The notes under the pieces: model-generated | Told to the model about the DNA's origin: nothing | Database searches by the model: none | What the model saw: only the letters and a program-made list of their open reading frames with translations | NCBI GenBank assembly: GCA_937877565.1 | Contig: CALFJB010000056.1 | Coordinates: 11,151 to 75,150 of the forward strand | Source of the DNA: an uncultured Selenomonadales bacterium | GTDB lineage: Bacteria > Bacillota > Negativicutes > Selenomonadales > Selenomonadaceae | Direction: 5' to 3' | DNA: 64,000 nt | Part shown: piece after piece, positions 26,344 through 53,679 of the stretch | Numbering within the stretch: the first letter of the stretch is position 1 | Layout of the letters: every line of letters starts with the position of its first letter | Program-made: the position numbers and the translations under genes

Positions 26344-26350
26344 TACAGGG

Positions 26351-26379
26351 CAAAAAAAAAGATGGCGGAAATTTCCGCC
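26351..26379 (-). terminator. intrinsic terminator ending the phage late operon
   Basis: Minus strand reads GGCGGAAATTTCCGCC followed by a T9 run. Confidence 0.75.
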
Positions 26380-26388
26380 GGTAAAAAA

Positions 26389-26721
26389 TTATTCTAAGCC
26401 GTATAAATCAAAAAGTGCGTCGTAAATATCTAGAATTGCCGCTTTAACTTCTTCGACGCTGTGAGCCTGCTGAAGATTTTCGCGCAGGACGTTTTGAATT
26501 TGAATGCCGCCGTCGACTTTTTTAATTAAAACTGTCGGCGTATTTTCTATTGGCGGCTTATCTAAGATTGAATTAATTTCGCCGTCGATTGAAATACCTT
26601 CGGCGTCGTCTTCGCTGCAGAAAATCCACGTGCCGTTGTTATTGCGGCGGATGTAGCGCGGTGTTTCCACGTTGAAACTTTCGCCGGTTGTCGTGTTTAT
26701 TATTTTGTACAAATTTTTCAC
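26389..26721 (-). CDS. hypothetical phage protein
   Basis: 110-aa ORF, last gene of the late operon. Confidence 0.5.
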   Translation of the reverse strand: MKNLYKIINTTTGESFNVETPRYIRRNNNGTWIFCSEDDAEGISIDGEINSILDKPPIENTPTVLIKKVDGGIQIQNVLRENLQQAHSVEEVKAAILDIYDALFDLYGLE

Positions 26722-26742
26722 TCCTTCACTGTATCCTAAAAA

Positions 26743-27003
26743 CTACTCCTTCAGCTTTTGTATTTCAAATTTAATCTGATGAAGTTCCTCGCGCAGGATT
26801 GTTTCAAGTGAATTTAATCGACTTTCAAAAATTTCAATGCGCTGTACAAGGAAATTGGTTTGTAATTGAAGTTGAGAAACTGCATTTGACAGCGCACTTA
26901 CGGAATCAGCCAATTCTTTCATTTTATCAATTCCTTTGAAGATTAAAATACAGTTGATAACGCCGAGTGCGCCGAGCTCCAGAAGTTTTGCGTACTCTTC
27001 CAT
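26743..27003 (-). CDS. small membrane-anchored coiled-coil protein (possible holin or lysis accessory)
   Basis: N-terminal hydrophobic helix LGALGVINCILIF followed by a heptad-rich helix; assignment is speculative. Confidence 0.4.
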   Translation of the reverse strand: MEEYAKLLELGALGVINCILIFKGIDKMKELADSVSALSNAVSQLQLQTNFLVQRIEIFESRLNSLETILREELHQIKFEIQKLKE

Positions 27004-27015
27004 AATTTCACCGCC

Positions 27016-28236
27016 TTAAATATCAGCGATGAACAGGTTTTCGTCGTCTGGCATTGCGGAATTTTCATTTTCGGGATTGAGATTTAAAAGTTGGACAGGG
27101 GCGGTTAAATCATAATCAAAACCAGTAGCAGAGACGAACGGAATATAGCGAACAGTGCCGCTTGTTACGCCGTACAAATTCGTTTCAAAGGTGACTCTAC
27201 CTCTTGAATAATAAGTAGTTATTTTTGTTCCGTTTTCAATAGCTGTAACTGTGGGAGTATCCCTTAGAATCAGCAAATCTGAATTTTGATTAAAGCCGTA
27301 AAAATTCAGCGTTGCTTTAGATTTATCAAAAATAGCAATAGTATTATTGCCTTCGGCGGTGCAAAGTGAATAATTGCCACGAGAAGAGTACTCTTTTAAA
27401 CCGATGAACTGATAACCGTGCGCTGTGGTGTCAATCGTTGCATTTTTAGCAAAACTATGAGTACTAAAAAGCGTACAATGTTGCCCTGTGTTTAAGTATA
27501 AATTAGACTCGCGTGCCTTAAGGCTGCAATAATCGCCGGAATTGTTAAAATAATACGCATTGTCTAAAGTGACGTGGTCGCCGCTGTTTGTAACCCTTCC
27601 ATAATTACAATAAACGCTGTCGCCGGTATTTGTACAAAAGGGAGTATAAAAATTAGAACTTTGAATACTCACATTGTTGCCGCTATTTGAAACTGAAGAA
27701 TACGTATATATTTTAGTGTCCGAGTCATAGTCAGTGCAACTATCGTTGACGATTATTGAACAAGACGCGCCGCTGTTTGTAATTGTTTTTGCGCCGCTGT
27801 AATTAAATGTGCCCTTCGCCGAAATAGTTACACTGTCGCCGGTATTTAAAATTGAATCGTGCCCATTGCCGCAGGCAATGCTGACGCTGTCGCCGATATT
27901 TTCTATTGTGTCGTCGCCCGCGCCGGTTACGATTGTTACCGCGTCCAAACTATTTCTTACCACGTCGTTATATTCGCCGGTATGAATTTGCTCAAAATCT
28001 GAATTGATTATACTGACTGCGCGGCTTTCAGCGTATATGACGTTGTCCGGCACTATCACAACGTCGTCAGTTTCTACTTTTTCAATCGCAGTTAAAGTGT
28101 TGTCAGAAAGGCCTGCAACGTGCGCCACGAAAACCGCCACGTCTGAATCTGCCGCCAATGGATTTACGTTGCTGATGTTTTTCGTTACTTCCGCGCCGTT
28201 CGCCTTCCTCGTCGTGTAATTTATCGAATTTGCCAT
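27016..28236 (-). CDS. phage protein: small-paralog N-domain fused to a beta-helix-like repeat domain
   Basis: N-terminal 60 aa are paralogous to the 66-aa protein upstream. They are followed by more than 8 repeats of N(S/T)GD.(V/C)(S/T)(I/L). Confidence 0.6.
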   Translation of the reverse strand: MANSINYTTRKANGAEVTKNISNVNPLAADSDVAVFVAHVAGLSDNTLTAIEKVETDDVVIVPDNVIYAESRAVSIINSDFEQIHTGEYNDVVRNSLDAVTIVTGAGDDTIENIGDSVSIACGNGHDSILNTGDSVTISAKGTFNYSGAKTITNSGASCSIIVNDSCTDYDSDTKIYTYSSVSNSGNNVSIQSSNFYTPFCTNTGDSVYCNYGRVTNSGDHVTLDNAYYFNNSGDYCSLKARESNLYLNTGQHCTLFSTHSFAKNATIDTTAHGYQFIGLKEYSSRGNYSLCTAEGNNTIAIFDKSKATLNFYGFNQNSDLLILRDTPTVTAIENGTKITTYYSRGRVTFETNLYGVTSGTVRYIPFVSATGFDYDLTAPVQLLNLNPENENSAMPDDENLFIADI

Positions 28237-28237
28237 T

Positions 28238-28438
28238 TTAATCCCCCAATTCAGGTATTTCTAAATCACTCTTCGATACTTTTTCAATTTTTTCTACAGA
28301 ATTGTTGCTCAATCCATTCAACGCCACTATAAAACTTGACAGCTCGTTATTCGTCGCGTTCGGATTTACATTGCTGATGTTGCGGGTTACTTCCTTGCCG
28401 TTCCCGCGTTTTGTTGTTACTTTTAATGTTGTTGACAT
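28238..28438 (-). CDS. small phage protein, DUF1659/DUF2922-like paralog
   Basis: MSTTLKVTTKRGNGKEVTRNISNVNPNATNNELSSFIVALNGL aligns with the N-terminus of the 406-aa protein. Confidence 0.6.
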   Translation of the reverse strand: MSTTLKVTTKRGNGKEVTRNISNVNPNATNNELSSFIVALNGLSNNSVEKIEKVSKSDLEIPELGD

Positions 28439-28463
28439 TTTTAATTTCTCCTTTCAGTCGAAA

Positions 28464-28584
28464 TTAGGTGTTAGGAATTAGGTGTTAGGAATTAGGTGTT
28501 AGGAATTAGGTGTTAGGTGTTAGGTGTTAGGTATTAGGGATTAGGGATTAGGGAAGTGTAAAACCTAAAACCTAAAACCTAAAC
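28464..28584. repeat. heptamer array forming an imperfect hairpin (TTAGGTG/TTAGGAA/TTAGGGA arm, CCTAAAA arm)
   Basis: Read directly; about 17 units. It overlaps the stop codon of the fiber gene and is followed by leader 28447-28461. Confidence 0.9.
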
Positions 28585-31500
28585 AGTAAAGCACGGCACA
28601 AATCCATACTGCAAGCACGGATTATCTGCATACATCCTGCCCATATACAATCCTAAATAATTTGTACCGTCCGTCGAACGACTCCAATTTCCAAAATATA
28701 GGTACAAGTGTCCCTCATACGTCATCGTCTGAAATGTATTCCCCGCTGCAAAAAAATCATACCGCTCTTGAAATGAATAATCTTCACTGTAACCCGACGG
28801 CAGCCAACTTGCATGCGTCGTCCCCCGCCATTCGTACCACGACATTCGCCATATCTTCTTTATTTCATATTCCCTGCCATTGTACTTTTTGCACTCCCTT
28901 ATATACGCCGCGGGTCCTCCATCTATCAAACTGTAAAAATTGTCTGGATCGTAATTAAATGTAAACGCCGCGCCATCACTGCCCGTCATTCCTTCACTAA
29001 AATTCAGCGGCGATAATACCTCCCATTGCGTAAGATGAGAGCCGGCCGTCCTAAATACCGCAAAATGTGCCCGCTTATCGCCTTCAATCGTCGCGTTGTG
29101 ATTTATTCCCATCAGTACCGCCACTAATTCTGTACCGCTTCCAAAACTTAAATCGCCCAAACTGCCTTTTACCGTCAGCTTTTTAGTTTCGCCCACGTCA
29201 AAATTTTCCGCCAGCGTTCCATTACGCGCCCACGTCGCTATCTTCGCCCAACTTAAATCATTCAACCTCAACGCTATTTTTAGCGGAACAATTCTAAAAT
29301 GACGCGAACGCTTATAATTGGCAGTCTCACTTAGATATATTTCAATGCTATATTCTATATCCGTTCGGGCTACATAATCCGGCGAATCTAAAAGCGTTTC
29401 TCCTTCTTCCCAAGTTTCTGCAGTAATGTGATATGACCTTATACCCGTCAACGTCAGCTTACCTGCCGTGCTGTCAAATGTCGATTCAAAAAAATAATTC
29501 CACGCTTTATGAAGTGTCTTTGTTATAATGCCGTCGCCGGTTTTACTTGTAACTGTAAAAGTGCGCGTCAGCTTCTTTGGCGTAAAATTTGTACGGTAGT
29601 AAATTGATTCAGCGGGTACGCCGCCAATTACTTCAAAAGTGCTGCCGTCGCTGACTGTAACCGTGAATGACGGTTCAGCTTTTTCAATCGTGAAGGTAAA
29701 AGTTTTTGCGCCGTAACTGCCATCAGCCCACGTGCAACAATTTCGCGGCGTCAATGTTATTTCGTAACTGCCCGCGTTCGTAAATGAAGTTGCCGCGTCT
29801 TTCGTCCCGCCGCCTGTACAGAATAAAAATAAACCATTCGTTGCCAAGTCTGAATCGCCCGCAATCGCTGAAAAGCCTTCAGTCCATTTGTGCGCCGTCC
29901 CGTCGTAAGTTATCGTTACATCCTGCGCGAGCGTGCTGAAATAATCCGGCAGTGCGTACGGCTCCAAATTTACCAAAATACTTTTATCAGCAGTCGTTCC
30001 ATCAGACCACGTGTAATTTGTTTTATCTTTCAAACTGACAGTGCTTGCTTTTATTTTTGACGTGTGAGAATCATCGAACCAAGACGATACTTTTGATTCA
30101 ACGACGGACACGGTAGCACCGAAATAAAAGCCGTTGGCGTTTGCATCTCTCCCGTTGGTAGTGTTTGCCTTCGTCATTAAATTCACGTCGTACCCGTTCA
30201 AAACTACGTACCAAGACATTTTACTTGAAGTTACAACCTGATAAGTTGAGCCGGTGGGAATAGGAATTGCCTGCCCGCCAATTTCCCAATGTATTTCGTA
30301 AGTTGCCGCAGTCAAGCCGTCGAATTGGTAACAAGTTGGTTTTTTCAAAGTGAAAGTTGCCGTATAATTTCCAACGTTCGCCGCCGAATAGACGCCGCCC
30401 AGTGTCATTAAAGTTTCATCGTAATTTTCAAACTCTAAAACTTTTGTACTGCCATCTGAAACAAAGTAAGTTGAAGTCGCCGCCGGGCGTGCAACTGTCG
30501 CCTTCAAAATTTTAAAATCCACGTAAATTGGGTCAGTTGCGCCGTCGTCTTCCCATTCGCAGCTGTCATTGGGCGTAAAATAGCAGGTATAATCGCCGGG
30601 CAAAATCATTCCAACATAGCCCGTGCCTTCAACGTAACCATCGCCGTAACGTTGAAATTCCCTGCCGCTCCAATTCGCAACCGTCGCCGAATGATATTTT
30701 CCGTCGTACGTGTGAACCGTCGTAGTTATAATTGGCTTAGCAATCGGCTTGCGGTTAATCGTCCACGTTACATTTTTAGCAGTTGTGGTTCCATCAGACC
30801 ACGTGTAATTTTCCTTCGGCGTTATTGTTGCCGTATAAGTGCCGGCGTTTATCGCTGAATTGCCGGTTATGTCGTGGTACGTTGAATCAAAGTTTTGAAT
30901 CGTAGGTCTTTGAGTCCTGCCAAGATAGTAAGTCAAAGTCCCAACTTGTTCAAAGCCGCTTGACATTTCCTCCGTCAATTTCGCCCGTGTAATTTGCCAC
31001 GTTAAATCGTGTGGTACGCGTGCATATGCTACTTGCCCGCCGAAATATGTATTTACATTATCTTTCAGCGTCAAAGTTATTGTATAGTTGCCAACATTTG
31101 CAGCTGAAGTGTCGCCGGTTATGGTACACCATTTTTGATAATAAGTTAAATTGTATTCGCTAAGTATTGAGCCGCTCAACTTATAAACAAGCTCCGGCGT
31201 AAATTCCGCGCCGTTGTATTCGTATTCGGTGTACTTCAACGACGGCGATTTTATTTCAAGTGCTTTAATTTTCCAATTCAAAGTTATTGGCGCGGTAGTT
31301 CCATCAGTCCACGTGTAACTTGCATCTTTGAGCGTGAAAGTCAAAGAATAATCGCCGACTGTTGTAGCCTTCCACGTTCCTTCCGCCGTCATTAATTCTT
31401 CATTGTAATTTCTGACAGGCGCGGTTTGTTCTTCGCCGCTGTAATTTAAACTGTAAGAAGCTGTCGTGAAAGGCCATTTCGGCGGGGTAACTTTGTTCAG

Positions 31501-33387
31501 TGAAATGCTCCAGTCCAAATTCACGTTGTCTGTCGTTAAATCTTCCCAAACGTGGTTAGTATCTTTCAGCGCGAAAGTAACGGTATAATCGCCCGCCGCC
31601 TTCGCCGTGATTGTCCCGCTGCGCGTCATATAACTTGAATTGTAGCCGTTAATTACGACAGTTTGATTTGAGCCGGTGTAACTCAAAAGATTATTTTCAA
31701 GCGTTGGCTTAGCAAGTGGCGCGGGGTCGATTTTCCATTCAACGTCTTTTGCAGTTGTCGTCCCGTCGTTCCACTTCATATTAGTTTGCGGCGAAATTTT
31801 TAAAGTATAAGTACCGGCGTTTTTAGCTGAAGTCGTACCGCTCAAAACGTGAATTCTATAATCGTAATGCTGAATTTTTGGAGCCAAATTAGAGCCGGTG
31901 TAAGTCAAAGTTCCAACCTGCGCGAAGCCGCTGGATTGACTTGCCGACAAAACGACTTCTTCCATATGCCATTCAATCGTTTTATTTGAAGTGGTATTGT
32001 CGCTCCACACTGTGTTGTTCGTGTCTTTGAGTGAAATAATTGCCGTGTAAGTGCCAACGTTGGTTGCCTTGTTCCCGCTGATTGTTTCATACGTTGAATC
32101 AAAATCGTGGAGGAGAAATTCTTGTTCCGTGCCGTCGTAATAATAGGACAAAACAACTTCGTAGGGGATATTCAATTTCAACTTTTCCATCGTCCAAGTT
32201 ACGCTTTTTGGCGAATTGTCTTGCGTGTCGCTCCATTTGTAACCGCTTTTCGGCGTAAAAGTTACCGTGTAAGTGCCTGCGTTTTTAGCTGAAGTCGTCC
32301 CGCCAATTTCAAGTTGAGTTGAATCGTACAAATACCATATCGGCGTTTGAGTTTCCCCGTTGTAAATCATTTCTACAAGCGAATATGGTACAAATAGAAT
32401 ATCAATTCTTTCATCAACCGGCGGCGTAAATTCTATAATCTGCCAGCCTTTGGCGGTTAAAACTGCGTCTTCGTAACCTGCGGGCGGCGCGGGGACTAAG
32501 CCGCGTTTGCCGTTCGCTGATGAAGTTGGTGCTGAAAAGTCATTCAACGAATTTGATATTGCATTGAATTTACTGTCCGTGTAACTTTTCGCACTGTTCA
32601 AAGTCGCCGTCGACTTCGTATTGATTAACGAAGTCAACGTGTTTTGCAAATTTGTAATTGCAGTTTGCCGGTCTGTTACTTCGTTTGATATTGCGCTTGA
32701 AAGGTTTGTATCTTCGGTTGTACGGTCTGATATTTCCTGATTCAATCTTTGATTTAACGTCGCTAAGTTTGCACTTTGCGTGCTTGCCTGATTCTGTATC
32801 TGATCGCGCAAATTTGTATTCGTGATACTTTGCGCCGCCTGCAAGTCTCCAAGTGAAACCATTATTGCCGCTTGCGTGTCTGCTATTTCTTGACTGCGCG
32901 CCGTACTTTCTGCGTCAATCGCCGCGTTTAAATTTGTTACCGCGTTGTTTAAATCCTCGCGCAGGTTTGCATCTGCCGCCGTCCGATTCGTTATTTCATT
33001 TTCTAACTTTGAATTTAATAGCGCAGTCGCCGCGCGTTGGGCGTCGTCTTTATTTTGAATTTCGGTTTCTAAATTCTCTACCGCGTCATTTAAATCTTGC
33101 CGGACATTCGATATTGAAGCGTTCAATTCGTCCTTCGCCGTATTTATCGCCAAAGTCCGATTTTCAGTTTCAGCAGTCAACGCCGCCATTATTTCCGCGT
33201 CTGCATTCTCCCGCGTCAATTTCTCTAACGTTAAGTCGCTTCCTATTTCTGAATCTGCGTTTTTCCGGTTTTCAATCTCTTCGCCTATTACCTCTTGCAG
33301 GCGCGTTATCTCTCGTTCAAAATACGCCGTAGTTTCGGTCTCTCGCACCTGTTCTTCCGTTACCGGCGTCTTTATTATCTGCCCCAT
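28579..33387 (-). CDS. giant tail fiber/adhesin
   Basis: 1602 aa. N-terminal coiled coil, then the fibre motif GKRGLVPAPPAG, then at least 11 Ig-like repeats (..GTYT.T.T.K....W.DGTT..K.V.W.I..), then a ~300-aa C-terminal domain. Confidence 0.7.
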   Translation of the reverse strand: MGQIIKTPVTEEQVRETETTAYFEREITRLQEVIGEEIENRKNADSEIGSDLTLEKLTRENADAEIMAALTAETENRTLAINTAKDELNASISNVRQDLNDAVENLETEIQNKDDAQRAATALLNSKLENEITNRTAADANLREDLNNAVTNLNAAIDAESTARSQEIADTQAAIMVSLGDLQAAQSITNTNLRDQIQNQASTQSANLATLNQRLNQEISDRTTEDTNLSSAISNEVTDRQTAITNLQNTLTSLINTKSTATLNSAKSYTDSKFNAISNSLNDFSAPTSSANGKRGLVPAPPAGYEDAVLTAKGWQIIEFTPPVDERIDILFVPYSLVEMIYNGETQTPIWYLYDSTQLEIGGTTSAKNAGTYTVTFTPKSGYKWSDTQDNSPKSVTWTMEKLKLNIPYEVVLSYYYDGTEQEFLLHDFDSTYETISGNKATNVGTYTAIISLKDTNNTVWSDNTTSNKTIEWHMEEVVLSASQSSGFAQVGTLTYTGSNLAPKIQHYDYRIHVLSGTTSAKNAGTYTLKISPQTNMKWNDGTTTAKDVEWKIDPAPLAKPTLENNLLSYTGSNQTVVINGYNSSYMTRSGTITAKAAGDYTVTFALKDTNHVWEDLTTDNVNLDWSISLNKVTPPKWPFTTASYSLNYSGEEQTAPVRNYNEELMTAEGTWKATTVGDYSLTFTLKDASYTWTDGTTAPITLNWKIKALEIKSPSLKYTEYEYNGAEFTPELVYKLSGSILSEYNLTYYQKWCTITGDTSAANVGNYTITLTLKDNVNTYFGGQVAYARVPHDLTWQITRAKLTEEMSSGFEQVGTLTYYLGRTQRPTIQNFDSTYHDITGNSAINAGTYTATITPKENYTWSDGTTTAKNVTWTINRKPIAKPIITTTVHTYDGKYHSATVANWSGREFQRYGDGYVEGTGYVGMILPGDYTCYFTPNDSCEWEDDGATDPIYVDFKILKATVARPAATSTYFVSDGSTKVLEFENYDETLMTLGGVYSAANVGNYTATFTLKKPTCYQFDGLTAATYEIHWEIGGQAIPIPTGSTYQVVTSSKMSWYVVLNGYDVNLMTKANTTNGRDANANGFYFGATVSVVESKVSSWFDDSHTSKIKASTVSLKDKTNYTWSDGTTADKSILVNLEPYALPDYFSTLAQDVTITYDGTAHKWTEGFSAIAGDSDLATNGLFLFCTGGGTKDAATSFTNAGSYEITLTPRNCCTWADGSYGAKTFTFTIEKAEPSFTVTVSDGSTFEVIGGVPAESIYYRTNFTPKKLTRTFTVTSKTGDGIITKTLHKAWNYFFESTFDSTAGKLTLTGIRSYHITAETWEEGETLLDSPDYVARTDIEYSIEIYLSETANYKRSRHFRIVPLKIALRLNDLSWAKIATWARNGTLAENFDVGETKKLTVKGSLGDLSFGSGTELVAVLMGINHNATIEGDKRAHFAVFRTAGSHLTQWEVLSPLNFSEGMTGSDGAAFTFNYDPDNFYSLIDGGPAAYIRECKKYNGREYEIKKIWRMSWYEWRGTTHASWLPSGYSEDYSFQERYDFFAAGNTFQTMTYEGHLYLYFGNWSRSTDGTNYLGLYMGRMYADNPCLQYGFVPCFTV

Positions 33388-33425
33388 TCTTTCACCACCG
33401 TTTTATTTATTTTTATCTTTTTTAT

Positions 33426-33496
33426 GTACTTTCTTTCCATTCGAAAAAAGAAAGTACCATGCGCGGCTTGCAAATGCGAGGAGTACGAGCATTTGC
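33426..33496 (-). repeat. stem-loops HP1 (33426-33457) and HP2 (33470-33496) upstream of the fiber gene
   Basis: In mRNA sense HP2 reads GCAAATGC-TCGTACTCCTC-GCATTTGC. This is the same loop as at 354-380, with a compensatory stem change. Confidence 0.7.
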
Positions 33497-33497: not shown

Positions 33498-33540
33498 CCT
33501 AACACCTAACACCTAAAACCTAACAGCTAACACCTAAAAC
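33498..33540. repeat. heptamer array (CCTAACA/CCTAAAA/CCTAACAG)
   Basis: Read directly; encodes the last residues (LGVSC stop) of the 392-aa ORF. Confidence 0.85.
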
Positions 33541-34698
33541 ATATCCAAACACTTCCGCCCCGCCTTCTACTTCAATCCTGCCGCTCACTTCACGTAATGT
33601 ATCACCCAGCGTCCTATACTTAAACCGCGTCTTCTCCAATTCAGAAAAATCTAACGTCATCATCTGCCAATTCTCCGCCGCGTAATATTCATAGCTCGCC
33701 ACTATTTCTAACCCCGCCGACGCCGTCAGTTTCAAACTCGAAATTCCTGTATCCAATTCATAGTCAAAAAATGGCAAGCCTCCTATTTCCAAATGTAACG
33801 TGTCCTGCGCCACGTACCTATCCGGCAAATATATCGTCTGCTCAATTCCCGCCGTTTGCCCCAATATCACATTTTCGGCGCGTTTAGTTTCCATATTCAA
33901 ATTTACCCACGCCTTCAACTCTCGACCTTTCAACGGCTCGTGTTTTACTAACAAATAGCAAGTTTTCAAGTCCGCCGAATAGTTTTCTGTCTTCGTGTAA
34001 AACGTCCGAACATTCGCCGCATTTTTATTTGAGTCCTCTACATATTCAATTTTTAAACTGTCGATTGACGCCGCGTCCGTCCCGTCCAACGTCGTTACTA
34101 CAAAGTTTGTACGGAACTGAATCGCTTGCGCCACTTGCCCTTCAAATAAAGTGTAATAGTCCCAGTCGCTCCATTCGCCGCTAATCTTTCTAACCCGCGC
34201 ACTCGTTACCGCCGTTGCATTGTTTTCAGTCGTCTGACGTTCAGTCAATTTTACGATTCTTGCATTTTCCGCCAACTCAAAAATAGGCGAATAACTTAAA
34301 CGCGTGTAAACGTCGTTGTAGCTTGAAACTTTCAACGCCAATTTGATTTTCGGCATCACTTCAAAATCAAACGGCGCACTCAACGCAATTATCGGGTAAA
34401 CTTTTTTATTGACGAACGCCGGAATATTTTCCAGCTCCAACAATTCGCCGACCGTGTTCCCGTATTCCATCACGTCTTCAAATTCCCCACGGTACGGGTA
34501 CGGGTCCAATATCCCGTTCACAAATCTATACAGCGCGTCTTCTATCTTGAATATTATTCGCCGCATTGTTCCCGGCGGTTCTGTCCCGCCTATTTCAAAG
34601 CCTCTACAATTTGTCTCGTACGTTAAATCAAATGGTGCTAGCGATTTTATTAAGCCGCGTTTCAAAAATTTGTAACTGCTGCTCCCGTAATTTTTCAT
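33520..34698 (-). CDS. hypothetical phage structural protein (392 aa)
   Basis: Sits between the small-gene cassette and the fiber gene; ATGA overlap with the upstream gene; no family recognised. Confidence 0.55.
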   Translation of the reverse strand: MKNYGSSSYKFLKRGLIKSLAPFDLTYETNCRGFEIGGTEPPGTMRRIIFKIEDALYRFVNGILDPYPYRGEFEDVMEYGNTVGELLELENIPAFVNKKVYPIIALSAPFDFEVMPKIKLALKVSSYNDVYTRLSYSPIFELAENARIVKLTERQTTENNATAVTSARVRKISGEWSDWDYYTLFEGQVAQAIQFRTNFVVTTLDGTDAASIDSLKIEYVEDSNKNAANVRTFYTKTENYSADLKTCYLLVKHEPLKGRELKAWVNLNMETKRAENVILGQTAGIEQTIYLPDRYVAQDTLHLEIGGLPFFDYELDTGISSLKLTASAGLEIVASYEYYAAENWQMMTLDFSELEKTRFKYRTLGDTLREVSGRIEVEGGAEVFGYVLGVSC

Positions 34699-34889
34699 AA
34701 CTCCTCGCCGTCCATATAGTTTTCTATGTCAAAATTCTTCCAGTCGAACTTGCTATTGTCCGTAAATATCGCCGTCACTGCCTTTAATATTTCCGCAGTT
34801 TCAGCCGCCGTCTTCCCGTCCAATACCTTCAATATTTCGGTTATCGCCTTGCGGCTGCTGTCTTTTTGTAATATTTTTTCCAATTTCAT
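34695..34889 (-). CDS. hypothetical small phage protein (64 aa)
   Basis: Start ATG 34889 lies 8 nt after GGAGG; the stop overlaps the next start (ATGA). Confidence 0.5.
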   Translation of the reverse strand: MKLEKILQKDSSRKAITEILKVLDGKTAAETAEILKAVTAIFTDNSKFDWKNFDIENYMDGEEL

Positions 34890-34922
34890 TTTTATTACCT
34901 CCAACCTAAAACCTAAAAAAGA

Positions 34923-34944
34923 AATGACTGCACACGCCCGCGCC
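34923..34944 (+). repeat. left arm of a perfect 22-bp inverted repeat (AATGACTGCACACGCCCGCGCC)
   Basis: Exact reverse complement of 36053-36074. Confidence 0.95.
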
Positions 34945-35195: not shown

Positions 35196-35207
35196 TTAAA
35201 TCTCCTC

Positions 35208-35414: not shown

Positions 35415-35426
35415 TTAAATCACCGC

Positions 35427-36252: not shown

Positions 36253-36255
36253 CTT

Positions 36256-45016: not shown

Positions 45017-46894
45017 CTAACCAAAAATATCAATTTCTCGACTAATAATTTTTTTATTGGTCGTTTTTTTATTTTCAACAACGCCTTCGCGCAGGGCTGC
45101 CGCTTGCATTTTCCAAAATTCAGCCGGTTCCAAATTGCCAATACAAGACTTCATCGCCGCTAAATTGTAGTTTCTTATATCCAAACTTTCATTCCGCGAC
45201 TTCGGGTTTATTTTCTCCCACGTCATATTTATCACGCCGCCACTTTTACGCGCCGTCAATCTTTCCGCTATTAATTCCTTAAAATATATTTCATCATAGC
45301 CGCGCTCCAGTTCATCATCTACCGGGAAATGAAAACTTTTCGCCCCGGGCGGCTCTATCGCTAACCTGCTAAATATTTCTGCCTTCCCGGTATCTACGCC
45401 CAATATTACCAAGATAATATTCGCATTCTTCGGCTTGCCAAATTGATATAAAAGCGGCAAACCTGCGCCACCTTTGCCTTTTATCGCAAACACGCCTTTC
45501 ACTTGCCGCGTACTGCAATATTTATATACTTCGTCCGTTGAAAAGCCTGAATCAATAAAAGTCCGCGCAACTTTTAAAGTTTTACCGTTTGAAAAGTGAT
45601 ATTCCCTATCTAAAATTTTATCTAATTCAAGCCACGTACTTTGCTTAGTCGGACTGCCCCAATTTGTCCCGCGTAAAATTCCATAACAACTTTCATCAGA
45701 CGACCAACCGCATATTTCAATTTCAAGGCGATTAGCTTGCACGTCAACGCCCGCCGTCAAAAGTAATACTTCCTCCGGCAATTCCGCCAAATATTTCTCA
45801 CGCCTCTGCAAAAATATATTCTCGTCTTGAAATTCTCCGCGTACTTGATAACTTACGCCAAACCGCGTATTAAATACCACGCGCTCACGTGTCTCGTCGC
45901 CTTTCGCCTCCAAATATTCCTGCATTATCTGCCGCCAACTCAAAAACGTTGAACTAAATCCATTTACCCAAAAACTGCGCACGCCATTTTTTAAAGCGTC
46001 CAAATTCTCCGCCACGTACTTTTGCGCCGCGTTTTTCATAGTTAATTCACTAAATTCAAAGCTACAATCAGGACACCTCCAATTTACTGAATTAACTGTG
46101 ATTGTTCGATTCTTCAACTCATCTACCTTTTCCGTAAAATCTACCTTCATATCCCGATAATCCAGCCAGTGATATTCCCCGCAATTCGGACATTGATGCA
46201 GCCACTTTTCTTGCGTCCCTAGCAAATATTCCTTGTCTATCCTTGAATAACCTTCAACTGTTGGCGTCGAAAATAGCGCAGTCTTCCGATTAAAATACGT
46301 CGTCTGCCGCTTTTCTGCTAGTGAAATTGGGTCACCTTCCTCACTTGCTGACGCCGGGTATCTGTCGCACTCGTCACATAATAATATACGTATTGGCTTT
46401 GACGCTAACCCTGCAGGCGAATTCGCTCCTACTAATACTATTCTGCCGCCGCGATACATTTTTGAAAGTATCGTCTGATTTGAATTGCGCGTCTTGTTTA
46501 AATCGTAAAATAGCGGCGTCAATACCGCGCTGTCTTTTATCATTCGCTCCAACCGGTCTTTGGAAAAATCCTGCGCCGTCTCCAACGTCGGCTGCACTAT
46601 CATCAAGTTGCACGGGTCTAAATGTGCGAACCGTCCAATTATTGCTAACAGTAATTGACTTTTGCCGGACTGTGAACTGGATTTAAACACGATTTTTTGC
46701 ACTTCGTCATCTGTGAACGCGTTCATTATTTCCTTTACATACGGCGTCCTTGAAGTTTTGTACCTGCCCGGTTCCGCCGCCGTACTCGGCAAGTATAAAT
46801 ATTTATCCGCCCATTCTGAAACTGTCATTCGCGGTACCGGGCGTAAACTTTTCGCCAACATATTTTTCAGTGCCGTTATCGTTTTCATTTTCAT
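45017..46894 (-). CDS. terminase large subunit, lambda gpA family
   Basis: 625 aa; N-terminus ..LRPVPRMTVSEWADKYLYLP parallels lambda A (..PQTAVEWADANYYLP); Walker A-like SSSQSGKSQ. Confidence 0.9.
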   Translation of the reverse strand: MKMKTITALKNMLAKSLRPVPRMTVSEWADKYLYLPSTAAEPGRYKTSRTPYVKEIMNAFTDDEVQKIVFKSSSQSGKSQLLLAIIGRFAHLDPCNLMIVQPTLETAQDFSKDRLERMIKDSAVLTPLFYDLNKTRNSNQTILSKMYRGGRIVLVGANSPAGLASKPIRILLCDECDRYPASASEEGDPISLAEKRQTTYFNRKTALFSTPTVEGYSRIDKEYLLGTQEKWLHQCPNCGEYHWLDYRDMKVDFTEKVDELKNRTITVNSVNWRCPDCSFEFSELTMKNAAQKYVAENLDALKNGVRSFWVNGFSSTFLSWRQIMQEYLEAKGDETRERVVFNTRFGVSYQVRGEFQDENIFLQRREKYLAELPEEVLLLTAGVDVQANRLEIEICGWSSDESCYGILRGTNWGSPTKQSTWLELDKILDREYHFSNGKTLKVARTFIDSGFSTDEVYKYCSTRQVKGVFAIKGKGGAGLPLLYQFGKPKNANIILVILGVDTGKAEIFSRLAIEPPGAKSFHFPVDDELERGYDEIYFKELIAERLTARKSGGVINMTWEKINPKSRNESLDIRNYNLAAMKSCIGNLEPAEFWKMQAAALREGVVENKKTTNKKIISREIDIFG

Positions 46895-47393
46895 TTGCCT
46901 CTACAAATTTTGCGCCTTCCATTTCTGATGCAAGCTCATTTAAATTATCTTCAATCTCATTTGCTAAGATTGAATTAATCTGCGCGACGCTTTTGCCTTC
47001 CAACTGCGGACTAAGTTTCGCCGCTATTCCGGTTAATTTGTTTCTGAAATTGACAAGCATTTCAGCCAAAACGCCTTCGACTTCCGCCGCCTCATACAAG
47101 TTGCCGCGTTCCTTTTCCAATTTCAATTCCGCCAATTCACGTTGCTTTTTAGTTAATAGCGCACGTTCCTTCCAATAGTTGATACTTTCCGCGCCGTCTT
47201 TTGCCGCCTGCTTACTCAAATAGTATTCGCGCAGGCTGTCTATCAAAAGTATTGCGCCGCTTTTTGAACCTTCGTCTTTCATTAAAACCTGTTCGTCAAT
47301 CAGCTGGCTCACTCGTTGCTGACTCACTCCGATTATCTGGGCAAATTGTGTTTGTGTTACCGTCCAGATTTTCGGGCTCCCTTGTAATTTCAT
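46803..47393 (-). CDS. terminase small subunit, Nu1-like
   Basis: N-terminal HTH TQTQFAQIIGVSQQRVSQLIDEQVL followed by coiled coil; immediately upstream of the large subunit (92-nt overlap). Confidence 0.6.
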   Translation of the reverse strand: MKLQGSPKIWTVTQTQFAQIIGVSQQRVSQLIDEQVLMKDEGSKSGAILLIDSLREYYLSKQAAKDGAESINYWKERALLTKKQRELAELKLEKERGNLYEAAEVEGVLAEMLVNFRNKLTGIAAKLSPQLEGKSVAQINSILANEIEDNLNELASEMEGAKFVEANENENDNGTEKYVGEKFTPGTANDSFRMGG

Positions 47394-47638: not shown

Positions 47639-47665
47639 ATTCAAAACTTTTAAGGAGTGTTTCTA

Positions 47666-48643
47666 ATGGATAAAAAGAATTTGCCCGAATACGCTAATCT
47701 TGAGTCGATTAAGAAAGAATTTTCATTGCCGGAACTTGTTCAGCTTTCCCGTGAGGAAAATTTCGCCGAATGGCTTACTGTAAATCTTTACGCCGGTGAA
47801 GCTCAACAACTTTTGGACATCGTCGAAAATGACGGTACAGATGCCGAAATTGCCGCCGTCCTCTGCAAAATCTTCAAATATAAATTCGACGAATTGAGCG
47901 ACGCCGAAATTTCCCAAATTTCAGCTGTCATCAACCGCGCACGCGCCCGCGTCAATAATAAAGCGGTCGTCGTTGAAAATCAAGCCGACTTAGCGCACGC
48001 TATTTGGGCGACTACAAACGAAATTATTTGCCTCAATGGCGGCGAATTCAAAATTGCGATTGGCGTGCCGAACAAAACTTACAAGGGCTTTAATAACGCC
48101 GTCGTTGATATTTTCTTTGATAAGGATATTGACTTGGACGCTCAAAATATCACGCTTGAAAATCTTCAACTTTGCCTGCGTTCGCCCATCAACGTCAAAA
48201 TGGACAATTCCAAAAACGTTAAAGTTATCAACGCCTTTAAAACTATCCTCAACGAAAATATTTCATCAGAGGAAATTGCAGACGTTTTGCGTGGCAGGAG
48301 TCCTTTTGAATCCGCCGAACAATTCCGCGCACGCGCAGAAAATATCAAAGGTCTTGCCGTTGGTACCGTACTTTTGGAAGATAAAAATTACAAATTCGAC
48401 GAACAGACTTTCAAAATTGCGCCGGAGTGGAACTTTGATTTTATTTCAGTCCTGCGCGACTTCACCGCCAATAAGTCCTTCACTTTGAAAATTGCGCCCG
48501 CCGACGCTGAAAAACTCTACGCCAACGAACGCAAACTTCAAATTTTCGCCGATTTAACTTTTGCCGATAATAAATTGACTATCGCTAGCCTGTACCTTGA
48601 AACTCAAAGCGCAGGTAGAGTTTACCTTGAAAAGTGGAACTAA
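47666..48643 (+). CDS. hypothetical protein (moron, opposite strand to all other phage genes)
   Basis: 325 aa from ATG 47666 (AAGGAG 8 nt upstream); no family recognised. Confidence 0.7.
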   Translation: MDKKNLPEYANLESIKKEFSLPELVQLSREENFAEWLTVNLYAGEAQQLLDIVENDGTDAEIAAVLCKIFKYKFDELSDAEISQISAVINRARARVNNKAVVVENQADLAHAIWATTNEIICLNGGEFKIAIGVPNKTYKGFNNAVVDIFFDKDIDLDAQNITLENLQLCLRSPINVKMDNSKNVKVINAFKTILNENISSEEIADVLRGRSPFESAEQFRARAENIKGLAVGTVLLEDKNYKFDEQTFKIAPEWNFDFISVLRDFTANKSFTLKIAPADAEKLYANERKLQIFADLTFADNKLTIASLYLETQSAGRVYLEKWN

Positions 48644-49544: not shown

Positions 49545-50513
49545 TTACCTGAACATAAAGTTTGTATTTGTTTCCTCCAACGCCGCTTTTTCGGCTTCGT
49601 ACTTCGCCTTCAACTCCTCGTACGTTTTGCCCTGCTCAAGTGCAAGTTTGTAACGTCCGTAACTTAACCCGCACTCCGACGCCTCCAACGCCATTAACTT
49701 TTGATGGTCGCGGTTGCCAAGTTTAAAGCGTTCAAGTTTGCTCATTGGCTCAATAGGTTTGGGATTCGCCGGGCTCCACTCCGATTCTCTGTTTTCAATT
49801 TCCTTGTAGTAATGAAACTTCGACTTTTTAGGTTTTACCGGCTTTTCAGTTTGAGCTGATGAAACGCCTGAAAGGTCTGCGTAACGTTTTTGACGACGCT
49901 TTATAATTTTTTGCTTGAGCCAATAACTTTTTCTACATTCCTCACTGCAAAATTTTTGCTGCCCGCCACCTTCCGCCATAAATTTTTTCCCGCAATTCAC
50001 GCAAATTTTTTCAACCGGCGGTTTTGGCTTATACGCAAATTTCTGATACCCAATGGCTTGACATTTATCGCTGCAGTAAAGGTGATGGTTTTTTTCCGGT
50101 ACAAATTCCTTTCCGCAAATTTCACATTTCCTTGAAAGTTTAGCCGGTTTACTTGTCGCCTTCGCGTAACATTGAACGTTTTTACATTTCTTGCTACAGT
50201 ACTTTTGATTTGGAATGACAGTTTCAAATTCCTCGCCGCAGATTGGACATTTCAATTTGCGCAATGTTCCTTTTACGCCGTTTTTCTTTTTTATATGTCT
50301 AGCCCTGTAATAACAAGTTCTGGAACAGTAAATTTTGCTCGGGTACGCGGTTTTAAATTCTGCGCCGCAAATTACGCACTTTCTCACGTACACCGGCGAA
50401 TTTTGGGTTTTTTTAGCTTTTTGAGCTTTTAGGTAACAAGAAAGCGAACAATATTTCTGGTCGCGTCTTCTTGCCTCATACTCCTTCCCGCAAATTTCAC
50501 ATTTCTTAATCAT
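49545..50513 (-). CDS. phage protein with five tandem zinc-ribbon repeats
   Basis: Five repeats of C.(I/N)CG(K/A/E)(E/K)F....(Q/H)KYCS..C, then a helical C-terminus. Confidence 0.65.
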   Translation of the reverse strand: MIKKCEICGKEYEARRRDQKYCSLSCYLKAQKAKKTQNSPVYVRKCVICGAEFKTAYPSKIYCSRTCYYRARHIKKKNGVKGTLRKLKCPICGEEFETVIPNQKYCSKKCKNVQCYAKATSKPAKLSRKCEICGKEFVPEKNHHLYCSDKCQAIGYQKFAYKPKPPVEKICVNCGKKFMAEGGGQQKFCSEECRKSYWLKQKIIKRRQKRYADLSGVSSAQTEKPVKPKKSKFHYYKEIENRESEWSPANPKPIEPMSKLERFKLGNRDHQKLMALEASECGLSYGRYKLALEQGKTYEELKAKYEAEKAALEETNTNFMFR

Positions 50514-50911: not shown

Positions 50912-50998
50912 CCTAAAATAAGGGCTAAGGTTTAAGGGTTAAGGGAAAAATCCATAATCCTTAGTCCCTAATCATTAATCCCTAATCCTTAATCCCTG
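50912..50998. repeat. heptamer hairpin array (CTAAGGT/TTAAGGG arm; TCCTTAG/TCCCTAA/TCATTAA/TCCTTAA arm)
   Basis: Read directly; overlaps the stop codon of the DnaC-like gene. Confidence 0.85.
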
Positions 50999-51909
50999 AT
51001 TAAGCGACGGTCTGAACCTTTCAGCGATGCAACTTTGCACATTTGCTTTAAACGGCTTGCGATTCTGTCGCCGGTCTTACCGTCCTTGCCTAAATTCATT
51101 CGCACCGCCAATTCATTCAACGTGTAATTCGACGTTATCAAAGTCTGCCTCTCGTTGTTGTAACGTTCATTTATCACAAGGTACAGTCGTTCTATCGCCC
51201 ACTCCGTCAAATTTTCAGTCCCAATATCATCCAGTATCAGCACGTCTACTTTTTCCAGCAATTCCATTTTACTTTCTATCGTATCTTCCGACCCTTTGGC
51301 GAAACTTGCACGCAGCTGATTTAAAAGTTTCGGTACGTCTATGAAAAGTAACGTCCTGCCCTGCTTGATATATTCCTGCGCGACCAACGCCACTAAAAAT
51401 GTTTTGCCCGTTCCGGGTTCCCCGTACAAAAACAGATTTAATGGATTGTCGATTATGTGACGCGCCCACTTTACCGCGCCTTCATTATTTTCATCTATTT
51501 TATAATCCTCGAACGTCTTGCCATTGTAACGAACAGGCACTTCCGCGCTTTTAAACTTTTTCATCAGCGCAGTTGCCAAACGCTGCTGCTTGCAATATTT
51601 GCATTCGCACCAACGCAATTTCAAACGATTGTCCTCAACTAAAACTTGATAACGAAAACCTACATTTGTTTCCTTCGCGCAGGGATAACCCGTGCAAGTC
51701 GCGCAGACTGCGCATTCACGCTCGGCGCGGCGTTCCTGACTCAAAAAGTACACGTCAATTCCAATACTCGTATCAGGATAAACTTTGCGCCACTTTTCGT
51801 AACCCGCTTCATTGAGCTTGTTGAGTTTCGCGGTATTCGCCGCCATCAATTCCTCAAAACCAATTTCCTTTAAATAAGTTTGAAAATCTACAATTTTAAG
51901 TTCTTCCAT
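50989..51909 (-). CDS. DnaC/IstB-like helicase loader ATPase
   Basis: Walker A GEPGTGKTFLV, Walker B VLILDDIG, ..ERYNNERQTLITSN; N-terminal Cys-rich segment. Confidence 0.8.
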   Translation of the reverse strand: MEELKIVDFQTYLKEIGFEELMAANTAKLNKLNEAGYEKWRKVYPDTSIGIDVYFLSQERRAERECAVCATCTGYPCAKETNVGFRYQVLVEDNRLKLRWCECKYCKQQRLATALMKKFKSAEVPVRYNGKTFEDYKIDENNEGAVKWARHIIDNPLNLFLYGEPGTGKTFLVALVAQEYIKQGRTLLFIDVPKLLNQLRASFAKGSEDTIESKMELLEKVDVLILDDIGTENLTEWAIERLYLVINERYNNERQTLITSNYTLNELAVRMNLGKDGKTGDRIASRLKQMCKVASLKGSDRRLIRD

Positions 51910-51910
51910 C

Positions 51911-52090
51911 TTATTCCTCTTCCTTCATCAATTCGTTTAACTTTTCGCGGACTTCTTCAAGCGTCTTGCAGTACGTTATGAAGTCCCCGCGTTTAGTGAA
52001 AAGCGCGTAACCTTCGCCCGTTATCGAATGCAATTTGTAACCGCCAAAACGCGCCTTGAGATACAATCTCTGCACCTCTTTATCTGCCAT
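51911..52090 (-). CDS. small hypothetical early protein (59 aa, below ORF-track cutoff)
   Basis: MADKEVQRLYLKARFGGYKLHSITGEGYALFTKRGDFITYCKTLEEVREKLNELMKEEE fills the gap; its stop abuts the next start. Confidence 0.45.
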   Translation of the reverse strand: MADKEVQRLYLKARFGGYKLHSITGEGYALFTKRGDFITYCKTLEEVREKLNELMKEEE

Positions 52091-52092
52091 AA

Positions 52093-52437
52093 CTACTCCT
52101 CCTTTTTATATTTTTCAATGAAGTACTTGTAAAATTCTTCCGCCAAATGGTACGCGGCGGTTTGAATGTATTCATCCAGCAAGTCGATAATCAAACGCTC
52201 CAAACTCACGCCGCGCACTACCGCCAAAATCGACAAATCGTTATACATTTCCTCCGGCAAGCTAATCTCAATTTGCTCCGTTGCGCCTTCGCCTTCGCTA
52301 ACTGCCTTTTCGGCAAGTTGGGTAACGTATTCTTCAACGCTCAATTTTTCGGCTTCCGCCATTTCCTCTAAACGCTCGTACTTTTCCGGCGTCATTTCAA
52401 TTTCCAACAACGCTGTATCTTCATCAAATTCAATCAT
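52093..52437 (-). CDS. acidic protein with two ribbon-helix-helix-like repeats
   Basis: Two copies of the pattern ..I.(M/L)(T/P)(P/E)E.Y..L...A......S.E..(V/I)...L. Confidence 0.5.
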   Translation of the reverse strand: MIEFDEDTALLEIEMTPEKYERLEEMAEAEKLSVEEYVTQLAEKAVSEGEGATEQIEISLPEEMYNDLSILAVVRGVSLERLIIDLLDEYIQTAAYHLAEEFYKYFIEKYKKEE

Positions 52438-52450
52438 TTTTTCCGCTCCT

Positions 52451-52786
52451 TTACTTTTTCGGAAAATCTATTTCGGTTGCGCCGTACCAGTCAGCCACGT
52501 AACTTTTTACCGCGTCTTCAATCAAACGCCCAACTTTCACTTTGCTTACCAACTCAATAATTTTTAAATCGTCGCACAGCTCCTCCGGCAATTCAACTTC
52601 AAGCGTCACCGTGTCGCCGTCCTCAAATTCGTTTTTAATTTCGCACCAATCTTCGGTATATTTTTTTACCGCGTCCTCAATCAAGCTTGCTACGTCAACT
52701 TCGCTTACCATCTCAATTACTTCCAAGTCGTCATACAGCACTTCCGGTAATGCTATCGTGACGCTTACCACTTTTGTATCTGCCAT
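52451..52786 (-). CDS. acidic protein with two ribbon-helix-helix-like repeats
   Basis: Internal duplication: V.(I/V).LPE(V/E)L(Y/C)DDL..IE.VS.V.V..LIEDAVK.Y..DW occurs twice. Confidence 0.55.
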   Translation of the reverse strand: MADTKVVSVTIALPEVLYDDLEVIEMVSEVDVASLIEDAVKKYTEDWCEIKNEFEDGDTVTLEVELPEELCDDLKIIELVSKVKVGRLIEDAVKSYVADWYGATEIDFPKK

Positions 52787-52798
52787 TTCTTTCTCTCC

Positions 52799-53578
52799 TT
52801 ATTCCGGCAATTCGTCATCGCCGCCGTAATTGTCGGCAACTTTTTTCACTTTCTGCCCAACGTTGGACAGCACTTTCTCTAAAAGCGGCAATGTCAACGC
52901 GCCTTTTTTGTCGTAACGACCTGCCGCTTCTATCGCCTTCAAAAGTTTTTCCGTCCCGTAAGTGTTTTCAAGTTCAATCAGTGTCAACGCTACGCCGCCG
53001 CTGTACGGTACGCCATTCCATTTCCGCCACATTTCAACGACTGCCGCACTGTTCGTACTTTTGGGCGCATCTTTGACCTCCGCGCGTAGATTTTTTTCCG
53101 GCTCGTCGCCTTCAAAAACCGCCTCGCGCGCGCCCGCTGCAGTAGGAGGAGGAGGAGGAGCTGTCTCCTTCTCCTCTCTCTCTCCGTCTTTATTTTTTTT
53201 AATATTTAATAAGCCCAGGAAATTTTCAACACTTTTTCGCCCAATTTCGGTTTTTCTTTCAAAACTTTTCTCCTCATTTGGGTTTAAAAAAAAGCGGTTT
53301 TTACCGTTCCCTAAGTTATTTTCTGTAAGTTTATAGACGCGCTTTTTACTTTGAATCGCTCCCGCGTTCAGCAGAGCGTTACGCGCGCTATCGAATGATG
53401 CACTGGATTTGATACCGCTCAGGTGTTGCAAGTACTCGTTTGACAGTTTCAATTCCGCCGGATACCTCGCCTCGTTGAATTCGCCCAATATTGCAAAATA
53501 CAAACTGCGGGCATTCGCGCTTAAATTCTCACGTCTGCTCAAGCCCTGAAACCAATTATAGTGGTCTATCAGTGTCAT
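52799..53578 (-). CDS. replisome organiser, DnaD-like
   Basis: N-terminal winged-helix-like region plus a C-terminal DnaD/DnaB-2-like segment; it is the first early gene, followed downstream by the DnaC-like loader at 50989-51909. Confidence 0.5.
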   Translation of the reverse strand: MTLIDHYNWFQGLSRRENLSANARSLYFAILGEFNEARYPAELKLSNEYLQHLSGIKSSASFDSARNALLNAGAIQSKKRVYKLTENNLGNGKNRFFLNPNEEKSFERKTEIGRKSVENFLGLLNIKKNKDGEREEKETAPPPPPTAAGAREAVFEGDEPEKNLRAEVKDAPKSTNSAAVVEMWRKWNGVPYSGGVALTLIELENTYGTEKLLKAIEAAGRYDKKGALTLPLLEKVLSNVGQKVKKVADNYGGDDELPE

Positions 53579-53679
53579 TCCCTACACCTCTATTCCTTTT
53601 TCAATGATCCGTTTTTAAGTTGCCTTTTTTCGCCCCTTAGGTGTATAATACAGTATCTTTTTTACGAAAGGGGCTTTTT

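Follow-up and report, generated by a model that had tools for sequence, protein, structure and literature searches.

The window analysed here is a 64-kb stretch of DNA from an uncultured Selenomonadales bacterium (contig CALFJB010000056.1 of assembly GCA_937877565.1) that contains a prophage-like element of 27.2 kb, a tight block of co-oriented phage genes on the minus strand at positions 26389-53578. The DNA originates from the short-read assembly of an anaerobic bioreactor metagenome, in which it is part of a 96-kb contig (ENA ERZ922531; project PRJEB12797). Host genes bound the element at both ends, placing the phage block inside a chromosome: on the left lies the gene of an AMP-binding enzyme (24651-26285), and on the right the gene for TelA (53641-54813), which begins 62 bp past the gene of a 259-residue protein and is followed by host genes for a PASTA-domain penicillin-binding protein (PBP) and ATP synthase. 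The PBP, a STAS protein of the host and the taxa of the nearest prophage relatives would fit a Bacillota-like bacterium. A preliminary description, made from the letters of the window alone, had set limits (26350-53640) that these searches bear out, and had considered both an undescribed type of tail or particle and a decayed prophage with intact open reading frames (ORFs).

PHROGs and Pfam profile searches identify the packaging, head and neck genes, all on the minus strand and given here from right to left with the matching families and their E-values. The terminase small subunit (TerS, 46803-47393; phrog_57, 6e-28) is followed by a gpA-type terminase large subunit (TerL, 45017-46894; GpA_ATPase, 3e-69; GpA_nuclease, 5e-71), a W-like head-tail adaptor (44156-44380; phrog_118, 5e-19; DUF6148), a portal protein of the lambda family (42536-44002; Phage_portal_2, 7.6e-77), a ClpP-type head maturation protease (41471-42313; CLP_protease, 1e-23; phrog_94, 1e-45), a D-like head decoration protein (41107-41481; phrog_49, 4e-11) and an E-type major capsid protein (40048-41103; Phage_cap_E, 3e-32; phrog_29, 4e-49). 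The neck block comprises four genes (38130-39777), which have the same order as gp08-gp11 of the Paenibacillus larvae phage Lily. They encode an 89-residue protein with a weak match to DUF7210 (E 4e-5, below the Pfam cut-off), an FII-like protein of 116 residues (39161-39511; phrog_2551), a Neck1/tail-completion protein of 172 residues (38561-39079; phrog_27) and a virion protein of 144 residues (38130-38564; phrog_2581). The latter was considered as a candidate for the tail tube and rejected, since its homologues coexist with PF04985 tubes in Lily and in two of the related loci described below (L004 and L006). The next gene (36285-37931, minus strand) encodes a contractile tail sheath of 548 residues, which matches phrog_23 over its full length (4.9e-68) as well as the structure of the pyocin sheath (3j9q, 4.9e-12), and many of its 258 homologues carry PF04984/PF17482 or are named sheath in their source. 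The element thus has the gpA terminase, lambda portal, ClpP, D and E genes in the order of a complete Lily-like phage, and also the neck followed by the sheath.

Downstream of the sheath the element encodes only proteins of a different kind, again all on the minus strand and named here by their length in residues. A quartet of small proteins (34953-36033) consists of p91, p81, p68, which belongs to the Pfam family DUF1659, and p80, which belongs to DUF2922; it is ordered and conserved in relatives. Then follow p64, whose sequence suggests a helical protein, and p392, a protein of the tail-fibre module that is built of several all-beta domains (both in 33520-34889), and a fibre or adhesin of 1602 residues (28579-33387; phrog_37900, 7.5e-109 in 8 stretches), which has a coiled coil at the N-terminus and then Ig-like repeats of about 90 residues. 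These repeats, the lack of a match to tape measure profiles and the position of its homologue next to the lysis genes in the related locus L008 ruled out that the 1602-residue protein is a tape measure. The last genes before the host AMP-binding gene encode p66, a further DUF1659 protein, and p406, in which Pfam and AlphaFold2 (AF2) indicate an N-terminal DUF1659 domain and a beta-helix of short strands (both in 27016-28438), and finally p86, with a transmembrane helix and a coiled coil, and p110 (both in 26389-27003). The AF2 model of p406 is of low confidence (predicted local distance difference test score, pLDDT, 64); it has regular short strands at residues 66-260, a beta-helix predicted with moderate confidence, and the DUF1659 domain is not resolved. 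The similarity of this model to beta-helix lyases and tailspikes is weak and non-significant; p406 is likely a receptor-binding protein.

What could p392 be? No Pfam family matches the protein itself, and a Pfam scan of 57 members of its family returned no family except two weak matches to DUF2460. The family is large, with at least 206 representatives of clusters at 50% identity (E <= 1e-3); the pattern scan used an alignment of 12 sequences, the one of 57 sequences being too diverse. An AF2 model based on a deep alignment (pLDDT 94) shows a chain of beta-sandwich domains. Sequence and profile searches of the PDB retrieved nothing meaningful for p392, and a fold search of the PDB with the model gave no significant match. 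Against the predicted structures of BFVD the model matched phage tail and VriC-like proteins with a probability of about 1 and a low TM-score.

Are the core tail genes truly missing? Hidden Markov models (HMMs) of six families of the lineage were made from copies found in 23-52 related loci and searched against all six frames of the whole window with the HMMER filters off. None of the families was detected, the best E-values being 0.46 for the tube, 0.35 for the chaperone, 0.18 for the tape measure, 0.66 for Phage_tail_X, 1.6 for gpD/YQBQ and 0.26 for the baseplate-V-like protein. Pfam scans of the ORFs of the element contained no match to the W/gp25, Baseplate_J and gpI families. Integrase, endolysin and CI/Cro families were likewise without a match among the element ORFs scanned with Pfam and PHROGs, and no direct repeat (att) of at least 10 nt is shared by the two ends of the element. 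This contig is indeed devoid of the core tail genes, and compared with a complete Lily-like phage the element lacks the tube-chaperone-tape measure segment, the genes of the baseplate and those for integrase, control of lysogeny and endolysin.

Most of what the preliminary description had read from the letters is borne out by these searches, namely the lambda-like order of the head and neck genes from a Nu1-like protein to a protein in the position of U, the identity of the 548-residue protein as sheath, the series of downstream ORFs of 91, 81, 68, 80, 64, 392, 1602, 66, 406, 86 and 110 residues, and the lack of tube, tape measure, baseplate, integrase and lysin. Two of its points hold in part. 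It had left the small proteins and the 392-residue protein after the sheath unassigned, which still applies to p392 with respect to Pfam, but p68, p66 and the N-terminus of p406 belong to DUF1659 and p80 to DUF2922. It had also stated that a repressor is lacking; no CI/Cro family was found, but two Arc-like proteins with predicted ribbon-helix-helix (RHH) motifs (52093-52786) could be regulators.

The meaning of these absences becomes clear from relatives. The closest described phage is Lily (Lilyvirus, NC_028841), an isolated phage that combines a head of the lambda type with a contractile tail of the P2 type, as the parent of the element would have done. Lily and the window agree in TerS, TerL, adaptor, lambda portal, ClpP, decoration protein, major head protein, minor tail protein, Neck1, virion protein and sheath, and the two sheaths are 31% identical over their full length. 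In Lily the genes after the sheath encode tube, chaperone, tape measure, hub, gpD, V, U, W, J, baseplate, fibre, amidase and holin; of these the window has only fibre-type genes. Sampling of one genome per GTDB species provided 51 further loci, from Bacillota, Negativicutes, Proteobacteria and others. In every listed GTDB locus with downstream DNA a tube homologue is found within about 20 nt (10-20 nt) of the sheath stop codon, usually followed, among the matches listed, by chaperone, tape measure, X and gpD-like genes. The search for syntenic elements, which the preliminary description had proposed, thus yielded about 50 loci in addition to Lily, with the tube following the sheath wherever the order could be read. 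Judged from these gene orders, the combination of a lambda head with a sheath is a common and already isolated phage type (Lily and ~50 loci in Bacillota, Proteobacteria and others), and the only oddity of the window is what is missing after the sheath.

Metagenomic loci that are closer to the window show the same. L002, L004 and L006, whose sheaths are 42-47% identical to that of the window, have the same lambda-type head, neck and sheath and continue past the sheath with a PF04985 tube, a chaperone of ~90 residues, a PhageMin_Tail tape measure, Phage_tail_X and gpD/YQBQ; in L068, too, the tube follows the sheath. More importantly, the genes that follow the sheath in the window are found in such relatives together with a canonical tail. 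L069 carries on one contig chaperone, tape measure, X, a V-like protein, PAAR, gpU, Baseplate_J, gpI, a tail fibre and a 497-residue protein, and thereafter homologues of p91 (52% identity), p81 (62%), p68 (65%), p80 (60%) and p64 (42%) and the start of a p392 homologue. This contig is the most decisive piece of evidence on the post-sheath genes. In L006 the four small proteins are encoded in the order of the window (p91, p81, p68, p80; E 8e-7 to 9e-21) between the canonical tube and the tape measure. The IMG/VR locus L009 contains the C-terminus of a tape measure, YQBQ, DUF2577, a sheath initiator, Baseplate_J, Mu Gp48, a tail-collar fibre, a 721-residue protein and then a p392 homologue. L008 has a 723-residue homologue of this 721-residue protein, followed by three DUF1659 proteins, p91-like and p81-like proteins and a DUF2922 protein, a p392 homologue, a 1705-residue homologue of the large fibre of the window with a DUF6273 C-terminus, and more fibre-like genes; after these it encodes a homologue of p86 and, next to it, an endolysin of the Amidase_3 family, which the window lacks. 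Since their homologues coexist with tube, tape measure and baseplate, the post-sheath genes belong to the fibre-bearing distal part of a normal contractile tail and do not stand in for tube, tape measure or baseplate. The structural check of p392 is in line with this, as the model resembles peripheral tail proteins and has no resemblance to a tube or hub. A megablast search with 15 kb against isolated phages gave no match, and scans of IMG/VR with single proteins, the sheath and p392, retrieved no close relatives.

The nearest relatives reveal where the two parts of the element meet. Two short contigs, L012 and L013, are 93% identical to the window at the DNA level over the neck genes and the sheath (window 38990-36286), and this homology ends exactly at the sheath stop codon (36286). 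Two others, L014 and L015, which are 98.7% identical to each other in their overlap, start to match at window position 36111 and continue with 89% DNA identity through p392 (36111-33499 in the case of L015). The homology to the nearest relatives is therefore broken within 36111-36286, in the interval between sheath and p91 (36034-36284) that is a putative deletion or recombination joint, and the segment 36112-36285 is the seam of a head-neck-sheath segment with a fibre-module segment. In L015 a gene of the family that encodes the 497/700-residue tail proteins, 56% identical to that of L069, lies directly upstream of p91. Relatives have about 13 kb of tail-core genes between the sheath and the fibre module, an estimate derived from L069, in which ~12.3 kb lie between the start of the chaperone gene and the end of the 497-residue protein gene, plus 0.5 kb for the tube. 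At the other end, L014 encodes p66, a diverged homologue of p406 and proteins similar to p86 and p110, and then enters the orthologous host gene for the AMP-binding enzyme (89.6% identity). The gene of the 1602-residue fibre is precisely absent from the 89%-identical L014 (window 28579-33387 versus L014 2645-2938), and p406 is only 48% identical to the corresponding 371-residue protein of L014 as compared to 80-97% for its neighbours; the receptor-binding genes are thus subject to cassette-like turnover.

How did this arrangement arise? We consider it quite likely that an ordinary temperate myovirus has suffered an internal loss of tail genes and that the element is what remains of it, a cryptic prophage without function. 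Of the two options of the preliminary description, it is the decayed prophage with intact ORFs that is favoured by the comparison: the sheath is joined to the fibre module, and a block of ~13 kb, the integrase, the endolysin and att repeats are missing. The element also lacks the genes for excision, virion assembly and lysis that its relatives possess, as is characteristic of defective prophages. The parent would have combined a lambda-style head and neck with a P2/PBSX-style contractile tail. The late operon of intact relatives runs from TerS, TerL, adaptor, portal, ClpP, D, E, neck and sheath to tube, chaperone, tape measure and X, continues with a gpD-like protein, the baseplate (V, PAAR, U, W, J, I), a tail fibre and a protein of 500-700 residues, and ends with the quartet, p64, p392, further fibres and receptor-binding proteins, holin and amidase. 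The ~13 kb from the tube through the 500-700-residue protein are missing from the window, presumably because repeats between genes gave rise to a deletion or recombination event, and the integrase/lysogeny end, the endolysin and any att repeats are gone as well. Because the tail core is missing, the sheath now adjoins the distal fibre module. Without integrase or att sites the element should be unable to excise, without tube, tape measure, hub and baseplate it should not assemble a tail, and, as it has no counterpart of the amidase encoded after p86 in L008, it should not lyse the cell. The ORFs would be intact because the loss is likely recent relative to the measured divergence, most of which would have accrued while the phage was functional.

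Several observations argue against such a simple decay. First, all surviving ORFs are intact, including the one of 1602 codons. Second, the ratios of non-synonymous to synonymous divergence (dN/dS) between the window and L012 or L014 are 0.03-0.25 at synonymous divergences (dS) of 0.22-0.55 (sheath: dN/dS 0.044, dS 0.34), and the adjacent host gene has a dS of 0.32. Third, in L014 a related element adjoins the orthologous host gene. Intact ORFs, low dN/dS and the common junction could speak for long residence under selection. Fourth, L012, the nearest relative of the sheath, also lacks tube and chaperone at the usual site: in L012/L013 (2559-3110) the sheath stop codon is followed by a heptamer hairpin and a minus-strand gene for a 144-residue protein with an N-terminal transmembrane helix, and the next gene of L012 is a tape measure with complete N-terminus, no remnant of tube or chaperone being found in these 5.5-kb contigs. 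L012 seems to have become tube-less through a rearrangement different from that in the window, which may reflect independent decay or an older shared loss, so that the loss of the tube may predate the larger loss in the window. Finally, an immediate intact ancestor was not found: a search with the tape measure of L012 for an intact sister prophage gave a best match of 59% identity, and a scan of JGI metagenomes with the sheath only a 1-kb fragment. The loss of 13 kb is deduced from relatives with 42-65% protein identity and from short contigs of 89-93% identity.

These points raise the alternative of a retained or domesticated element that still serves some function, either kept for its fibre or adhesin genes or dependent on a helper, in which case it would make heads, neck, sheath and fibres and borrow tube and baseplate from a co-resident phage. 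Beyond the intact ORFs, the low dN/dS at a dS like that of the flanking host gene and the same orthologous host junction in L014, such retention would be consistent with the fact that L012 is tube-less and nevertheless has a sheath dN/dS of 0.044. However, low dN/dS values are also expected if the divergence accrued mostly in working phages, and the pattern of dS fits two related prophages residing at one locus since the divergence of their hosts as well as it fits phages that share an attachment site and diverged mostly while functional. The junction in common with L014 need not mean long residence, because the same att site is often used by temperate phages that are related. Moreover, in the sister lineage L014/L015 the quartet is still preceded by the 497/700-residue tail gene, the scanned ORFs of the window include neither an integrase nor an enzyme for lysis nor an evident control module, and we know of no satellite that provides a sheath without a tube. 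On balance we regard a retained, functional element as unlikely. A more specific form, in which the tube-less state is old and maintained by selection and a helper-dependent or domesticated element uses tube and baseplate parts encoded elsewhere, seems very unlikely to us; if true, the contribution of the element would be head, neck, sheath and a variable set of fibres anchored by DUF1659.

Little credence is given to the explanation that the missing block is an artefact caused by a jump of the assembler between intergenic repeats such as heptamer arrays or REP-like hairpins. The data are short-read metagenome assemblies, and repeat arrays are indeed found at the joint (36255-36286) and at many other intergenic sites. 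Yet two assemblies, represented by the ENA contig of 96 kb and an NCBI/Logan contig of 122 kb, agree in these proteins and in their neighbours, and the joint at 36112-36285 is unique DNA without overlap of repeats. A collapse of repeats can also not account for the ends where integrase and lysin would be expected, as host genes lie next to them. The other option of the preliminary description, a truly novel tail in which p392 and the small proteins take the place of tube, tape measure and baseplate, has on its side the gene content of the window and the fact that these proteins are unmatched in isolated phage genomes, but is contradicted by synteny and therefore extremely improbable, as homologues of every such protein sit beside canonical tube, tape measure and baseplate genes (L006, L069, L009), the predicted chain of beta-sandwiches in p392 looks like peripheral tail proteins and unlike a tube or hub, and the small proteins have just 64-91 residues.

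A remnant of a temperate myovirus would have well-known counterparts. Rac, e14 and CP4-57 of E. coli K-12 are chromosomal remnants that have lost essential blocks and retain some intact ORFs. Like these, the element in the window is flanked by host genes and has kept ORFs while essential blocks are gone; in contrast to them, the tail core would have been cut out cleanly from its interior, with head, neck, sheath and fibre genes left intact, and it has no att sites and no integrase. PBSX-type prophages and R-type tailocins are functional because they keep tube, tape measure, baseplate and a lysis cassette. The window shares with these phage-derived elements, which are found in the chromosomes of Bacillota and other bacteria, genes for a contractile sheath and fibres, but since those systems retain tail core and lysis genes and the window has of these only sheath and fibre genes, the element is not of the tailocin or PBSX type. 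Capsid-forming phage-inducible chromosomal islands (cf-PICIs) encode their own capsid and packaging proteins, an integrase and regulatory and replication modules, and neither sheath nor fibres. The element resembles them in encoding packaging and capsid genes with an incomplete tail, but does not belong to this type either, because cf-PICIs have an integrase and no sheath, whereas in the window sheath and fibres are present and no integrase was found.

Repeats of a particular kind are found in many intergenic gaps of the window. The largest array, about 30 heptamers (TTAGGGG/TTAAGGA on the coding strand), lies directly upstream of the start of the sheath gene (37934-38160). Further arrays within the prophage are located at 28462-28590, 33498-33540, 34897-34934, 35725-35753, 36255-36286, 39101-39147 and 50919-50997, and others in host DNA at 2486-2519, 5255-5289, 12847-12884 and 61763-61786. 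The units, CCCTAAC, CCTTAAC and ATTAGGT on the plus strand, are telomere-like and G-rich on the coding strand, and many arrays are paired with an inverted array such that long hairpins could form. The arrays bracket the sheath gene and the gene of the 1602-residue fibre, the two sites at which relatives differ in gene content, and the breakpoints of these differences (sheath/tube and presence or absence of the fibre) are all intergenic and beside arrays in the window. Recombination at the heptamer repeats would therefore be a reasonable cause of the loss. In addition, a REP-like intergenic repeat of ~90 bp with the core GAAAAATCCGGACGCGC is common to host DNA and prophage (window 63371-63459, 33401-33459 and 312-409; L014 36-131 and 2836-2917; L015 1421-1510). 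A conserved leader, ATTTCGACTGAAAGGAGAAAT on the coding strand, is present just 5' of the start codons of sheath, p81 and p66 (28411-28464, 35645-35698 and 37903-37956) and may serve the late genes in common, for ribosome binding or regulation.

The region upstream of the terminase encodes only a DnaC-like helicase loader, a zinc-ribbon/HNH-like protein, two RHH/Arc-like proteins and proteins without assignment. At the right end lies the gene of the 259-residue protein (52799-53578, minus strand), the rightmost of the element, which has no Pfam or PHROG match. It is followed on the same strand by the genes of the two RHH/Arc-like proteins of 111 and 114 residues, the possible regulators mentioned above (RHH_5, 3.6e-7; phrog_582, Arc-like repressor), the DnaC-like loader (50989-51909; IstB_IS21, 1e-21; phrog_50, 2.7e-56) and a zinc-ribbon/HNH-endonuclease-like protein of 322 residues (49545-50513; phrog_1271, 3.6e-25). 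Upstream of the TerS gene, but on the plus strand (47657-48643), lies a gene whose 328-residue product has no Pfam or PHROG match. L002 has a gene for a 327-residue protein in the same place and orientation, a likeness by size and position alone, and the 328-residue protein may be a conserved unknown of the lineage. Between TerL and adaptor a truncated remnant of an HNH homing endonuclease is found on the plus strand (44484-44753; phrog_374, 2.9e-23), which covers just positions 193-274 of the 617 positions of the profile. The preliminary description had counted two decayed endonuclease-like pseudogenes; this fragment clearly is one, but the ORF of the 322-residue protein is intact.

Gene order is unusually fluid in this phage lineage. 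Homologues of the 144-residue virion protein and of the 172-residue Neck1 protein have moved between adaptor and portal or between portal and protease in relatives, a p392 homologue is found directly upstream of the protease gene in L011, and methyltransferase, HNH_3 endonuclease and IS605 TnpB genes are inserted within the structural operon of relatives. Such sites are located in L002 at 3513-3962, in L017/L042 at 1078-2121, in L011 at 2060-3436, in L004 at 2958-4770 and 8227-8994, in L006 at 8427-9689 and 11648-12493, and in L068 at 4462-5643.

The only published description of the DUF1659 and DUF2922 domains concerns Staphylococcus aureus, in which proteins with these domains constitute a small regulatory pair, SroA/SroB, that acts on the stability of the sigS mRNA (bioRxiv 10.1101/2022.10.19.512975). 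Their recurrence in the fibre modules of phages suggests a structural or assembly role. DUF1659 is also the N-terminal domain of variable larger proteins of 175, 212, 305 and 406 residues in the window and L008, a pattern that would fit an anchoring domain for exchangeable receptor-binding proteins. Quartet and DUF1659 genes are located in the window at 34953-36033 and 27016-28438, in L006 at 13167-14174, in L008 at 2620-5305, in L069 at 12414-13412 and in L010 at 8231-9016. By eye their proteins have a beta-beta-alpha-beta pattern, and because of this common look they may form one paralogous family. A tblastn search with the DUF1659/DUF2922/p392 module found no match in Lily or in 50,697 records of isolated phages.

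The value of the analysis is mainly corrective, as what seemed to be a new type of particle could be explained by comparison with relatives. At the same time a conserved, uncharacterised module of the distal tail has been defined, which consists of the quartet of 65-90-residue proteins, the helical protein of 64 residues and an all-beta protein of ~400-500 residues. These by-products, the fibre module and the heptamer arrays, may outweigh the element itself in value.

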